NCBI GenBank assembly: GCA_951406725.2 | Contig: OX597830.1 | Location: forward strand, 25,482,001 to 25,546,000 | Direction: 5' to 3' | From: Octopus vulgaris | Lineage: Eukaryota | Length of the DNA stretch: 64,000 nucleotides | Shown: piece by piece, positions 1,335-49,340 of the stretch | Numbering within the stretch: the stretch's first letter is position 1 | Layout: the number at the start of each line of letters is the position of its first letter | Made by a program: the position numbers and the translations under genes | The notes under the pieces: model-generated | What the model was told of the DNA's origin: nothing | Databases searched by the model: none | What the model saw: the letters and a program-made list of their open reading frames with translations, nothing else

Positions 1335-1658
1335 CAGTTCTATATTTAAGAGATGAGGAATTCTGTGCATTATTTACGGATATTTGTCCTCATCTTGTTT
1401 GTTGTTAACACAACGTTTCGGGCATATGGCGTAGTGGCTGCTAACCCCAAGATTCCGAGTTCGATTCCAAGCAGTGATCTGAACAACAGCAACAACAACA
1501 ACAACAATAATAATAACATCGAAAAAAACCTTAGGAATGAGAACCCAAGTTCGAAATTTCCGCAAGACACCTGAAGAGGGCTGGAAGGTATATCAACCGA
1601 AAGTTGTGTTAACAACAAACAAGATGAGGACAAATATCCGTCGAATGTAAATAATGTA
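1335..1658 (+). mobile_element. tRNA-headed SINE-like element with 3' hammerhead motif and inverted Penelope-type tail
   Basis: A-box tggcgtagtgg, B-box gttcgattcc, (AAC/AAT)n linker, HHR at 1566-1610; 1376-1420 is the reverse complement of 1598-1641; 13-bp TSD ttgaatg(t/c)ttttg at 1322-1334 and 1659-1671. Confidence 0.8.
1566..1610 (+). ncRNA. Minimal type I hammerhead ribozyme motif (slightly decayed)
   Basis: gacac-CTGAAGA-g-ggctg..caacc-GAAA-gtt-gtgtt; stem I gacac/gtgtt; the inverted copy keeps the intact GAAACGTT palindrome. Confidence 0.7.
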
Positions 1659-2269
1659 TTGAATGCTTTTGATCATGGATTTACTGGATCAGACAACAAT
1701 AGCGTTAATAACGGGCTATCGCGAAAGTTTCTACATCAAAGTTTTTCAAAGTAGTCCGTATAGACGCCTGTGAGTGACTAAAATTTTGGAGAATATAAGC
1801 CCAGGAGTTCACAGTGGATGTATTGCGTTTATAAACCCTTTTATTACAGTTGAACAAAAATTGCTGGATTATGTATATTAGTTCCCGGTTATTGTACTTT
1901 TAATAGATAGCCTGATTGTGTGTGATGGCCTCTAGAGATGTGTCATTCAGGCACAACCAATTGGAAAAGATACAGATTATTTAAATCAACAATCTTGCTC
2001 TAAGAAGAACCAGAGCTCTTCAGTGCCGACTCAATATAAACCATATTTTTCACAGTATAAAACTTTTAAGAACAATCATATTTTAAACGAATTAAATTTT
2101 ATAAGAAAACATACTTTTATAAAAGGTGAATTAAAAAAATAAAAATGTAAATATAGATTTAAAAAGGAAAATTGATGAAAAATTCGACTAATTTTGTGTG
2201 TGTGTGTGAATGGAAATTAATTTTGTTAAAGGAGTGCATCAAGAAGAAAAATAAATCCTGAGAAGTCCT

Positions 2270-2790
2270 ACCCTACATAGTTGACTGGTTGATCTTCTAG
2301 AGACAGTTCTACATCAAACCACACCATATTTTCTTAAAGTAGGAAGAGACCGACTTACTAGAAATAACAGACAAATCTTCCCAGAATCTTAAATTTTTAT
2401 GTCGAAATACGGACAGATTAGACCAAAAGACAGAAGTAGTTGGTGGTGGTCATAAATGGAGTGCATTTAATAATAGGTCTGTTGGACGAGAATTAACCTG
2501 TGGCACAACCACAATATTGACAAAGAAATAATGCGGAGAACTTTTTACAATGCGAAGAGAGAAATAATGATTTATTAATTATTTATGTATTTCAGTTGAA
2601 GCAGTCATCATCACTGGGAAATACCAACGAATTATTACTTACCAGAGATAGCTAAAATAAGACACATTGGGAAAAGTAGCCTTAGATATACTAAGTATAA
2701 TAGAAAAATATAGGATAGCTGCAATCGGGAATGTCTTTGATCAAAGATCATTTCGACCAGGGCTCAACTAGAGATTAATAGCAATGACGA
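2270..2790 (+). mobile_element. Two old degenerate SINE-like repeat fragments (family also at ~1170-1715, 9560-9735, 42230-42470 and 43580-43745)
   Basis: Shared decayed motif ctagaaata.cag.caaatct...ggaatg.ctttgatca...ggct.aacaacaac. Confidence 0.45.
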
Positions 2791-2961
2791 CGATAACGAC
2801 GACAGTAAAAATAATGTTTTTCAGAAAATTGAAGTGTCTAAATATCCTTTGATTAATTAGTCATGCATGCACTAAATCGGATTTGGATAACCTAAAAAGC
2901 ATCAACATATAATCTGTCTATCTATATGAAATTAACACACACACACACATACACATAACAT

Positions 2962-3260
2962 GCGGTGGTGTAATGGCCCAATGGTTAGGGCTGCGGACTC
3001 GCGATTTCGATTCCCACACCGGGCATTGTGAGTGTTTATTGAGCGAAAACACGTAAAAGCTCAAGAGGTGGTTCCGGCAAGAGGTGTTGCCGAACCCTGC
3101 TGTACTCTTCCACCACAACTTTCTCTCACTCTTTCTTCCTGTTTTTGTTGTACCTGTATTTCAAAGGGCCAGCCTTGTCACAGTCTGTCACGCTGGATCT
3201 CCCCGAGAACTACGTTAAGGGTGCACGTATCTGTCGAGTGTTCAGTCACTTGCACGTTAA
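2962..3260 (+). mobile_element. tRNA-derived SINE (family D head, family C tail)
   Basis: ggcccaatggttagggctgcggactcgc head, tttcgattccc B-box, tail gggccagccttgtcaca...cttgcacgttaat. Confidence 0.8.
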
Positions 3261-3742
3261 TGAGGCGGTTAGCAAGACTTCTACCATAATAGATATAATA
3301 TTAAATATTTGAACAAAAGAAGGGTAAACATACCGCTTGCCAAAGATGAAAACGAAAGCTTCAAAAACCACCAATCCTACGATAAATACACACACGAGCA
3401 ACGCAATGAACACTTTAAAAAGTAGGCCTACCTTCAGGATGGAATTTGAAGATAGTTTACATATCCCAATATCAATTGATTTCATGCTATGCATGAGAAA
3501 ACATGCTTTGCAATCTTCAGTCGGAGTAACATCTATTTCCAAAATATTCACTACGCCAACTCCTGTGCGTTTCGAACTTTAAACGTACCCCTCCGTTTAA
3601 AGAGAAAACTATCGTAAACAATTAAAAAGTAACTATATGAAAGTATTTTTCTGTTAAAAACAATAATAATGAGGCGGTTAGCAAGACTTCTACCTTAATA
3701 GGTATAATATTAAATATTTGAATAAAACAAGGGTGAAAATAC

Positions 3743-3924
3743 CTATTTCTTTACTACACACAAGGGGCTAAACACAGAGAGGACAAACAAGGACAGACAA
3801 ATGGATTAACTCGATTATATCGACCCCAGTGCGTAACTGGTACTTATTTAATCGATCCCGAAAGGATGAAAGGCAAAGTCGACCTCGGCGGAATTTGAAC
3901 TCAGAACGTAGCGGCAGACGGAAT
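3743..3924 (-). mobile_element. SINE family A (Meta-domain-like), 5'-truncated
   Basis: Reverse complement of gttctgagttcaaattccgccgaggtcgactttgcctttcatcctttcggg...aaagaaatagg. Confidence 0.85.
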
Positions 3925-4660
3925 AGTGGTATTCCTAAATTGTGGAAGCTTAAAGTTCCAATACTTACCTTGATCTATTACAAAAATTTGTTGTATCGCA
4001 GTTGCACCACTTGCAATCAATATAAATATTTTGTACTCACTAAAGGTCAATCTACTTTCGTCCATAAGTCTCTGTATTCGTAGCAAGATCAGTAACCTTA
4101 GAAATCTTATATTGCATCTGGAAAAATCCTGATTAAATAGGGAAATAATCTTTTTTTGAAAGCGTCTCGAAGACAAAATATTGGCCAGTAATATATTTGG
4201 TCCATCTACTAAGAGTAATTTTCAATGAAAAATTTCCTGTCTTTTAGAAAGTAAACTACTTTCAGATGAGAAAGTCTTCGCTCATGCTATTAGCCATTCA
4301 TTATAATTTTTCGCGAGAAATAAACACCAATTGTAAATCTCAAACGAGAGCAATGTCCAACTAATGGTCCTTTTATGTGATCCATAAATGTGGTTGAAAG
4401 AACTCATTAGGAATCGATAAAGCGTTTATTAGAAATCGGAAACATTAGAAAATCGGGTTATGTGCCTTAAACAATATTTATTTTCATCATTCTGCGATCA
4501 GATCTCAAATTCCTTCACATTAAACGACGTTCTGTATTCTCACTGGATGGATAAACATTAATCTAATAAACTGTACCTCTCCTCAAACTCGGTTTAGATT
4601 AAGGTTTGAGAACAAACATTAAGCTAACAATCTACACAGATTCTAGTTTGATATTCATTA

Positions 4661-47369: not shown

Positions 47370-47454
47370 ATAGGCGTAGGAGTGGCTGCGTGATAAGTAG
47401 CTTACTTACCAACCACATGGTTCTGGGTTCAGTCCCGCTACGTGACACCTTGGC
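47370..47454 (+). mobile_element. SINE family B head
   Basis: ggcgtaggagtggctg..aaccacatggttctgggttcagtccc..accttggc. Confidence 0.8.
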
Positions 47455-47859
47455 AAACTGCAGTTTGCCCTCAGGGAGTGAAATAATCATTACAGATATA
47501 GGGTAAAGAATTATTAATTTAATAATTAATAAATTTTACCAAGTAGTTTCGGTATGGAAAAAAACATTATCGGTAAAAACTTGTACAAAAAGCTACATGG
47601 TAAAATTTATTAATTATTAAGTTAATAATTCTTTACCCTATATCTGTAATGATTATTTCACTCCCTGATAGCAAACTGCAGTTTTTTCTGCGGTACTATC
47701 TTGTGACGCACATGGTAATCTTGGAGGGAAATATGAAATCATTCGTCTATATAAATTTGGAAGTGCTGACTACTTTGTGTTATGTTTCGATGGCGCTTGA
47801 TCGAAGATGCAAAGGGTAAGTTTTTTTAGCATTTTAAAATTTATAATTCTCGAAGTATT

Positions 47860-47911
47860 ATGCCGATGAAGGAAATGAATTTGTATAATTCTAATCCAGA
47901 AACGTGTCCAT
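47860..47911 (+). ncRNA. Degenerate minimal hammerhead motif
   Basis: atg-CCGATGA-agga..tcca-GAAA-cgtg-TC-cat. Confidence 0.6.
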
Positions 47912-48198
47912 TATTAATCGTAGACTGTTTGATTTCGTTATTTTTTCTTCTTTTTGCCTATGTGAGTTACAAATATTGTCTGCGGAGTCATATTTGTAGT
48001 AAAAAGGAATTAGCTGTCTTTTGGCTGCTATTTCTAAATTTTCGGTATGCGGTGAAGCAACTTGTTGTTAAACCCTTAATTATATATATATATATATATA
48101 TATATATATATATATGTATATATATATATATATGTATGTATATATGTATATATAAATAAGGGTTTAGCAACAATATAATATTTTTAATATTGTGAAGT

Positions 48199-48281
48199 CC
48201 CAGGCTGATGAAGTAAATGTTCGGGTAAAGTATAAATTTCATATTCTTTATACCGATCTAATTCTGAAACGCGTACATGGG
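48199..48281 (+). ncRNA. Minimal type I hammerhead motif with long stem II
   Basis: cccagg-CTGATGA-ag...ct-GAAA-cgcg-TA-catggg. Confidence 0.8.
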
Positions 48282-48732
48282 TAATCTAATATCGATTGAT
48301 TTTCGTTATTTTTCCTCTCTGCCTTCGTGGATTGTTTACGATTAATTTGTTTTTTTTCCAGGAGTCTCTCTTTAAAGTAGAAGAAATAGCTAAGGTTCTT
48401 TGGCTGCTATTTCTAAACTTCGGTATGTGGTAAGGCAAATCTTTGCTGAACCCTATTATAAAGTATTACTTTAGTTTACGGTGAAATGGTCCTTTTTCAT
48501 GCCGAATTCTACTTGGTGAAATTATTGATTACTGGTTAATTAATTAATTTTACCCTTTGTTATTATTGATATATATATATATATATATATATATATATAT
48601 ATATATATATATATATAATTAAGGGTTTAGCAACAAGTTGCTTCACCGCATACCGATTATTTGCCAACCTAATGTGGCAGTCCCGTTTAGGGCGAATGGT
48701 ACTGTGTTGTTTAGCTTCAATGATATTTCTAG

Positions 48733-49340
48733 ATTACGGGGACGTAAATACACCAACACTAGTTGTGAAGCGGTGGTGAAGGACAAACACCCGCACCCAC
48801 CCACATATACATGTGTATATATATATATTGATAGAAATGGTAAGACAACAAACGAATGAAAGAGACCTCGATATTATGTAAATAGAGGAATTTATCTGTA
48901 AATATAATATGTGACAATTATTCGGTAGGCATGATAAAACTCGGAGTTTCGGATGTCGGGCGGAAATCCACGCCGGGATTTTTCATAGCATTTTTTCGAT
49001 GGCCAGATAACTGAAGAGATAGCGTCGTGGGTTTCCGCCCCAATCTCCGAAACTCCGAGTTTTTTCATGGCTACCGAATAATTGTCACATAGTAAATTTA
49101 CACACACACACACACACACACACACACACACACACACACACACACACACACACATATAATTATGTTTACACACATATATATATATATATATATATATATA
49201 TATATGACGGACTTCACTCAGTTTCCAACTATCAAATCCACTCACTACTGCCCGAGGCAATAGTAGAAAACATTAATCCGAGGTGTCATACAGTTGGACT
49301 GATTCCAGAACCACGTGGTTGGGAAGCAAGCTTTTTACCA
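48733..49340 (-). mobile_element. SINE family B split by a second HHR-foldback element (48830-49100)
   Basis: HHR at 49006-49066 gataa-CTGAAGA-gat..atctcc-GAAA-ctccgag-TT-ttttc; homologous to 34527-34811. Confidence 0.75.

Follow-up and report, generated by a model that had tools for sequence, protein, structure and literature searches.

Non-LTR retrozymes (LTR, long terminal repeat) are non-coding repeats of a few hundred nucleotides (nt) that carry a type I hammerhead ribozyme, occur as monomers or dimers and have been proposed as non-autonomous derivatives of Penelope-like elements (PLEs); with them, the principle of mobilization in trans is already in print (PMC7229834; bioRxiv 10.64898/2026.07.22.740005). 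PLE insertions are described as showing partial tandems and inverted 5′ copies, together with a tail that varies and a bias towards TA (PMC8557442), and the hammerheads reported from their pseudo-LTRs (pLTRs) include minimal type I motifs, palindromic stem III, a U3-A8 variant and nearby motifs on the opposite strand (PMC4209133, PMC8557442). The covariant U3-A8 core was described in a schistosome PLE (PMC4209133), and Chlamys-2_cBra has an upstream zf-CCHC open reading frame (ORF) together with a hammerhead (PMC8557442). Among long interspersed nuclear elements (LINEs), target-specific members of the Tx1 clade include Tx1L in Tx1D, Keno in U2 and Tx1-Mar in Mariner-N4 (PMC4494074), and HAL1 is a non-autonomous L1 derivative that encodes only ORF1p (PMC5753468). 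With these as a basis for comparison, our study analysed the hammerhead-bearing repeats (families A to H) of a 64 000 nt stretch of the Octopus vulgaris genome (assembly GCA_951406725.2, contig OX597830.1, forward strand, 25482001-25546000; hereafter the window), one of which houses an ORF1-only derivative of a LINE, here called the cassette or half-LINE.

The window repeats share with non-LTR retrozymes the features listed above, and with PLEs the pLTR-type hammerheads as well as the partial tandems, inverted 5′ copies, 30-40-nt tail and (TA)n bias that are also reported from non-autonomous Chlamys elements (PMC4209133, PMC8557442). Unlike retrozymes, they are mostly dispersed with inverted 5′ arms; our study found no pLTR homology to an autonomous PLE among ~70 endonuclease-bearing loci, and the portions of the retrozyme reports consulted describe no LINE insertion site. 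Unlike PLEs, the window elements encode no reverse transcriptase (RT) or endonuclease (EN), and the zf-CCHC ORF found here is of L1/Tx1 lineage. The explanation that we favour, and consider rather probable, is that these are retrozyme-like repeats copied by PLE enzymes, of which the A/C lineage serves as the insertion site of a LINE and its ORF1-only derivative, which then travel along with it. The new part is the nesting of a LINE derivative in a retrozyme, together with their probable joint travel. The literature searched contained no LINE that targets a hammerhead repeat, no nested ORF1-only element and no LINE moved by a PLE. The families of the window may already be present in Repbase or in supplementary libraries. 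In the octopus repeat paper, L1-Tx1 and Penelope are among the recently active families listed, and its main text does not contain the word ‘ribozyme’. The case bears on how PLEs choose their RNA templates and on the role of their hammerheads.

Two elements of the window bear directly on the LINE derivative, one with the cassette inserted and one with the same site empty:

36065-38370, plus strand: family A monomer with the ORF1-only half-LINE; inverted arm 36065-37150, forward arm 37148-38062.
21774-22405, plus strand: family C element; 361-nt monomer 22045-22405, inverted copy 21774-21963, partial tandem 21963-22044.

The first is defunct and rearranged, and derives from a unit of 2.1 kb. 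Its inverted arm holds a monomer end, hammerhead 36219-36265, the cassette tail, the 3′ untranslated region (UTR) and the ORF C-terminus, and its forward arm holds the ORF, which is 5′-truncated, has a stop near 37515 and lacks ~600 nt. To the right of these lie a cassette tail (38068-38080), the duplicated site (38080-38095), hammerhead 38099-38145 and the monomer end with its tail to 38370. Within the 2.8 Gb genome searched, the cassette ORF belongs to a large family, from which 25 distinct intact frames of 392-463 amino acids (aa) were collected at 50 loci, with the order 5′ UTR, ORF, 3′ UTR, AATAAA and a CCHC knuckle that scored under the Pfam cut-off. On either side of each cassette lies a duplication of 12-25 nt, which corresponds to host and not to cassette sequence. 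Median ratios of non-synonymous to synonymous substitution (dN/dS) of 0.125 (230 pairs, N-terminal domain) and 0.19 (270 pairs, whole ORF) indicate that the cassette ORF1 is under purifying selection, and an ORF1-only element of this kind points to a cis role of ORF1p. What tempers this is that the median was 0.27 among the 38 pairs with dS of 0.05-0.3 and that the pairs are non-independent.

A full-length relative came to light through locus L152, in which a distant ORF1 paralog runs into the start of an apurinic/apyrimidinic (AP) endonuclease. The LINE search seeded with this paralog (40 matches, 230 candidates) yielded 16 stretches that represent 13 independent loci. The LINE has an ORF1 of ~500 aa that shares 26-33% identity with the cassette ORF. 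Its ORF2, 1140 aa long, contains Exo_endo_phos, RVT_1 and zf-RVT domains and had human L1 ORF2p as its best PDB match (E 4e-66). A zinc-knuckle ORF1 and an ORF2 with AP endonuclease, RT and C-terminal zinc domain place it in the L1/Tx1 group; the Tx1 label itself is provisional, as it derives from domain order and target specificity and not from a tree. A relative of ORF2 is named from Argonauta, and the ORF2 homolog search returned no named Tx1 reference. Both LINE and cassette end in the same AATAAAGA. Thus the cassette has ORF1 only, a LINE-type 3′ end and an autonomous relative in the genome, as in HAL1, and on this sequence evidence we identify it as an independently mobile, ORF1-only (HAL1-like) relative of an L1/Tx1-type LINE. 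The identity to the LINE ORF1 found is so low that we regard it as an old offshoot rather than a simple deletion. It differs from HAL1 in being from an invertebrate, site-specific, represented by many intact-frame subfamilies with dN/dS of ~0.1-0.3, and nested in a ribozyme repeat. Since insertion site, duplication and tail are common to both, we infer that the half-LINE is mobilized by the ORF2 of the LINE. The initial annotation had taken the ORF1 gene for captured cargo, which is contradicted by its own site-specific insertion with duplication, by the full LINE relative at the same site and by a hammerhead-less subclade. Its treatment as cargo or as a PLE ORF1 was dropped once the LINE, with a related ORF1 and the same insertion site, had been found.

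The insertion site occurs once in empty monomers, as illustrated by the family C monomer of the window, in which a TATA-like box (22077-22087) is followed by the empty site (22103-22119) and a U3-A8 hammerhead (22134-22174). In L167 and L168 a cassette occupies it; L301, L302 and L313 have a related monomer in which the occupant is a full LINE. Eleven of the 13 LINE loci adjoin a hammerhead monomer, one follows a cassette tail and one lies at position 1 of a U2 gene. Across 54 filled sites, which come from overlapping loci so that some are counted twice, the tail lies 19-38 nt upstream of the hammerhead core. LINE and half-LINE are co-oriented, lie below a TATA-like box and are bounded by the 12-25-nt duplication, with repeated insertion giving tandem arrays; this amounts to fixed-site insertion with duplication in a multicopy target. 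The same cassette subfamily was found in different monomer types, and the upstream hosts of 29 A-type cassettes were 14 of type A, 3 A152-like, 7 of T307 type and 5 that matched none of six references. The U2 array ends exactly at U2 position 1, and upstream there is a duplicate of the opening 14 nt of U2; the LINE copies in monomer and in U2 are 99.0-99.5% identical, despite targets that have little sequence in common. At C3:20.81-20.83 Mb, three tandem LINEs (L304/L305/L319) stand at the first base of U2, with a 5′ junction in which the U2 start lies on what remains of an older hammerhead-type target; this stacked junction resembles layered 5′ tags.

Both the U2 case and the TATA-like boxes suggest that the insertion site is the putative transcription start of the monomer, and that target choice is presumably not set by sequence alone. 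Near-identical LINEs at unlike targets with only start-site position in common would challenge the view that Tx1 target choice is set by the endonuclease. As in the Tx1 LINEs described, this is an APE-RT LINE (AP endonuclease and RT) with a fixed site in a multicopy target and tandem insertions around the duplication, and co-transcription with the target is discussed in the same paper (PMC4494074). In contrast to those LINEs, its target is a hammerhead repeat at its predicted start, near-identical copies also lie at U2 position 1, and the composite has apparently been re-mobilized by a PLE-type route.

The mechanism that we propose is as follows. PLE RT/EN would copy multimeric or circular monomer RNA into (TA)n, and hammerhead cleavage would likely need dimers formed through the palindromic stem III. 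The LINE ORF2 would insert LINE or half-LINE at the monomer transcription start, where the inserted element would gain a promoter. Read-through RNA would still end in the hammerhead monomer, and, judging from this geometry, the PLE route could copy the whole composite elsewhere. A more far-reaching version would be a three-tier parasite chain, in which the LINE and its satellite home to the starts of retrozymes, U2 and other promoters, take the promoter and are then copied as a whole unit by Penelope, with site choice by position or borrowed flanking RNA rather than by endonuclease sequence preference, so that the LINE would spread along a foreign retrotransposition route and bring its own promoter and its next target with it; we regard this version as possible, at slightly less than even odds.

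Whether LINE and half-LINE travel inside the repeat was judged from rearranged copies. In the window, the inverted arm comprises a monomer end and 860 nt of cassette; directly next to it, the forward arm begins within the ORF. Four further copies (L037, L038, L041 and L044) break within the cassette and keep the monomer 3′ end with no monomer upstream. At C4:124.12-124.14 Mb, two complete monomer-LINE-monomer units lie head to head and are 99.1% identical over 6.2 kb; their LINE arms differ at 2 of 5284 ungapped columns (99.96% identical) and share eight private sites, compared with no site common to a single C4 arm and any copy of the U2 locus. On the outside, both the window element and the C4 pair terminate in monomer 3′ ends, which lie at (TA)n wherever the sequence could be read. 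As filled units show Penelope-type inversions and truncations, the LINE and half-LINE are likely also to be carried along within the retrozyme. If a 6-kb LINE rides in a retrozyme, this would imply a large cargo limit and a modular cis signal.

Several points weigh against joint travel. Empty monomers already have tandem and inverted arms, so most filled sites are equivocal and only a few broken or inverted copies separate a joint move from insertion into a resident monomer. The private-site test on the window arms gave no sites (98.8% identity between the arms compared with 98.3% for the best other copy). Next to the C4 pair there is a run of N, and the pair could have arisen through an inverted duplication at a later time or through a fold-back in the assembly. 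An alternative that draws on the empty monomers and on the run of N at C4 is one in which LINE and half-LINE enter resident monomers and never move with them, the odd composites being later rearrangements, 3′ transductions or assembly artefacts. There is precedent for it, as Tx1 families that target transposons are known and hitchhiking of SINEU-3 was tested and rejected (PMC4494074). We nevertheless judge it unlikely, as the outer ends are monomer 3′ ends and the arms duplicate this 3′ end, the C4 arms share their eight private sites, and the four copies cited above break within the cassette with no upstream monomer. L1-type twin priming is not known to duplicate the 3′ end.

Not all cassettes are associated with a hammerhead. 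A hammerhead-less subclade lies behind other TATA or CCAAT promoters, partly as tandems separated by poly(A), and in the rooted ORF1 tree, from which 5 of 25 rows were dropped, it is nested among the hammerhead-hosted cassettes, with weakly supported deep nodes (52-64%). Such cassettes were seen at L151, L153-L157, L144, L148, L165, L166 and L022, some of them protein-identical across chromosomes; they form tandem arrays behind TATA/CCAAT promoters or within what we take to be a Helitron-like repeat, and a second ORF1 paralog (31% identity) alternates with them. At L014, ~20 nt before the cassette resemble what is presumably the 5′ end of U1 small nuclear RNA, and Rfam gave no match there at gathering score. 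The 24-nt tail of an abundant short interspersed nuclear element (SINE) of the window (3721-3768, 30180-30203, 46297-46320 and 50822-50845) is 88-92% identical to the tails of hammerhead-less cassettes, and this SINE may use the same LINE. The only named protein relative of the cassette ORF is from Octopus bimaculoides, and a profile search gave 850 relatives, none of them named and all without context. The AlphaFold model of the ORF1 N-terminus was poor (predicted local distance difference test 55.8), and Foldseek found no match to it at E <= 0.001, the weak top rows being tandem RNA recognition motifs; an Atlas match (0.91) points to ZCCHC3-type RNA-binding domains and is no more than a lead.

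The hammerheads on which the retrozyme comparison depends are distributed over the window in the following further elements:

1335-1658, plus strand: family G; inverted 3′ piece 1335-1421, tRNA-like head, (AAC)n(AAT)n spacer, hammerhead 1566-1610, 3′ tail.
3258-3743, minus strand: family H, absent from the initial annotation; monomer with 77-nt terminal direct repeat and canonical type I hammerhead 3465-3525.
17885-18075, minus strand: family F bare monomer of ~200 nt, whose variant core CTGTNGA lies at 17978-18013 and whose 3′ end sits on (TA)n.
18552-18662, minus strand: 5′-truncated family F copy; first half of the core absent, site 18640.
25040-25802, minus strand: old Penelope-like relic, comprising a GIY-YIG-type endonuclease fragment at 25293-25802, a decayed U3-A8-type hammerhead at 25199-25233 and the 3′ end.
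34528-34812, minus strand: family B; two head-to-head hammerhead arms (34627-34687, minus; 34720-34780, plus), inserted in a SINE microsatellite.
47159-47345, minus strand: family E, absent from the initial annotation; its type I hammerhead at 47189-47276 has a long stem II, and its 3′ end sits on (TA)n.
47455-48080, plus strand: family D relative (D1); inverted tail pieces, variant core CCGATGA at 47860-47911.
48160-48662, plus strand: family D (D2); hammerhead 48199-48281, CGCG stem III, tail, inverted end piece 48618-48662.
48833-49102, minus strand: diverged family B pair within a SINE microsatellite; hammerhead arm 49006-49064, plus.

The initial annotation had proposed 13 hammerhead-like sites in at least six sequence-unrelated families. 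A strict type I descriptor gave four matches in the window (38099+, 36265-, 47276- and 3525-) compared with none in each of 12 block-wise dinucleotide shuffles, and a relaxed descriptor gave four compared with a shuffle mean of 0.15 (40 shuffles), so that the motifs do exceed shuffled density. Under these descriptors only 2 of the 13 sites (36219 and 38099) passed as single copies, and the others were therefore assessed through their genomic families. DNA searches were run with families A, B, C, D, F and G; each gave 2247-4597 first-look candidates, a figure not to be read as a copy number, of which 40 were scored. The core was intact in 19/28 copies of A, 24/29 of B, 21/24 of C, 10/24 of D, 10/24 of F and 13/29 of G. 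Taken together, 12 of the sites hold at the family level, the one at 25200 by way of a protein-coding PLE relic. That at 26961 is unsupported; it was rejected as a hammerhead family, as it has no GAAA and the genome search gave no second copy (1/1 candidates). Six families with many genomic copies do exist, although ‘unrelated’ is an overstatement for A and C, which share layout, landmarks and insertion site; blastn found no link between these two.

Families A, B, D, E, G and H have the canonical core (CUGANGA, GAAA and UH, with stems I-III), and family C has the U3-A8 variant (TTGATAA). The core of family F is CTGTNGA, with A6 replaced by U and position 7 variable, and one canonical relative was seen; it looks like a variant ribozyme that departs from the canonical core, and this core was not encountered in the available parts of PMC4209133 and PMC8557442. 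The claim that stem III is mostly palindromic stands for A, C, D, F, G and H; that of B is CTCGGAG with an unpaired centre. To assess covariation, 75 distinct A/C-superfamily motifs were compared, with the core and a landmark downstream of it as anchors. In 85-93% of these, positions 1-5 of stem I were paired, by several pair types, with 4.39 Watson-Crick pairs of 6 compared with 2.90 when partners were shuffled (maximum 3.27 in 1000), and the 3-8 pair was C-G in 47, U-A in 19, U-G in 8 and C-A in 1. Stem I and the 3-8 pair thus covary, within this superfamily and with relatedness uncontrolled. These observations indicate that the predicted hammerheads of the window families are real. A number of points count against their activity or their support: the shuffle ignores relatedness and stem III was picked for palindromy, the F (A6U) and U4C cores may be poor ribozymes, and eight of nine Xenopus retrozyme dimers assayed were reported without cleavage (bioRxiv 10.64898/2026.07.22.740005). 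Minimum-energy folds of single copies were mostly not the hammerhead fold, and Rfam gave no hammerhead in the window among the matches listed (150 of 156). On the minus strand at 400-900 and 42330-42390, GAAA precedes CTGANGA, the reverse of the usual order, in four places, for which no control was run.

Among individual families, C is young (copies 96-98% identical). It occurs in contigs of four presumed-RNA runs with one head-to-tail joint, which is also present in DNA tandems, and no inference is drawn from it. The 47860 motif belongs to a diverged D relative (75% identity to 48199 over 97 nt), and family E relatives gave nine matches in five loci. Both family B insertions lie in the internal (CA)/(TA) tract of one SINE family (34186-34983 and 48734-49342), and the upstream body of B is a purine-pyrimidine low-complexity tract. 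Family H had no relative among the loci compared, and no genome search was made for it.

Penelope-type insertion anatomy was quantified against a SINE without hammerhead. An inverted copy within 900 nt upstream was present in 69/158 hammerhead copies and 1/49 control copies, which bears out the inverted-terminus architecture previously noted. (TA)n within 45 nt of the matched end was present in 96/158 hammerhead copies compared with a 12% background and 17/49 for the control, so that the association with (TA)n stands in general and fails for family G (4/29). The monomers, 200-600 nt long, show partial tandem arrangement and inverted 5′ copies; their tails vary and their ends are mostly TA. Every unit bears a hammerhead and lacks RT/EN coding. 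The window repeats are thus likely to be non-autonomous hammerhead elements that are mobilized in trans by Penelope-type enzymes.

Candidate enzymes exist in the same genome. In one young autonomous PLE family (L201-L203 and L206), which has an overlapping upstream ORF, the unit measures 4271 bp and contains frames of 454 aa and of 775 aa (RT plus GIY-YIG); the family has many near-identical copies and a U4C core, and its copy at L202 has the head-to-head layout of the window families. A second (L329 and L334) has 781-aa frames and a U3-A8 hammerhead. The label ‘Neptune-like’, where applied, derives from domain order and not from a tree. Several dissimilar natural substrates and two young intact autonomous PLEs in one genome make a trans-mobilization assay feasible. 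Set against trans-mobilization, no window family shares 3′ sequence with these two families or with other endonuclease-bearing loci (~70, the best-scoring candidates); mobilization in trans is therefore deduced from anatomy.

The initial annotation went further and saw the hammerhead module itself as a tag recognized by PLE enzymes, with unrelated cargo (a tRNA head, the ORF1 gene) picked up. Part of this holds, as the elements are non-autonomous with PLE anatomy and autonomous elements with RT and GIY-YIG exist; the ribozyme as tag is unproven. Only the hammerhead and the PLE-type anatomy are common to the otherwise dissimilar families, structure could serve as the signal where no 3′ sequence is shared with autonomous PLEs, and genes carried between PLE repeats have been published (PMC6431247). 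On the other side, the ORF1 gene is brought in through a site-specific insertion of its own, with duplication, its LINE relative occupies the same site and its hammerhead-less subclade sits at other promoters. Moreover, Naiad and most Chlamys PLEs are reported to spread without canonical hammerheads, which may parasitize PLEs (PMC8557442). We accordingly give the tag explanation a low probability.

The tRNA head claimed as cargo concerns family G, in which A and B boxes are followed by a triplet spacer, then by a minimal hammerhead and finally by a tail. In the window copy, the boxes lie at 1427-1437 and 1457-1468 and one base of stem III is missing. No tRNA was called in the family G head by ARAGORN or Rfam, nor by ARAGORN anywhere in the window, and its reading as a tRNA head is tentative. 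A Pol III-type (RNA polymerase III) promoter followed by a hammerhead is also the arrangement of schistosome Sm-alpha (PMC6765202), from which G differs in being dispersed with inverted 5′ copies (20/29); a PLE end repeat is a possible origin of G. In the upstream regions of 22 copies, no partner PLE turned up.

That most short families are merely severed pLTRs of protein-coding PLEs, and not self-replicating lineages, is very improbable: it is true of the 25200 relic, one of the 22 G copies has a co-oriented Penelope-type RT fragment ~330 nt upstream and the family H hammerhead is laid out like that of the young PLE, but in C, A and F full monomers are joined to one another in head-to-tail fashion or have simple repeats at both ends, the upstream body of B is low-complexity sequence, and the RT fragment near G is cut short and set apart by SINE debris. 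The motif at 25200 sits behind a GIY-YIG fragment and is retained there in related relics, and so belongs to the remnant of a protein-coding PLE; Pfam gave no match on the fragment itself (25293-25802).

Two further observations concern the remainder of the window. An imperfect palindrome of 280 nt at 26120-26400 has AT-rich ends and no hammerhead, is like a miniature inverted-repeat transposable element and had no relative among the loci compared. Decayed fragments at 5658-6959, 10828-11789, 12473-12883, 40479-41057 and 62480-63085 comprise two RTs (RVT_1), a piece of Pif1 helicase, a LINE-like frame of unassigned type and a Mariner-type transposase.

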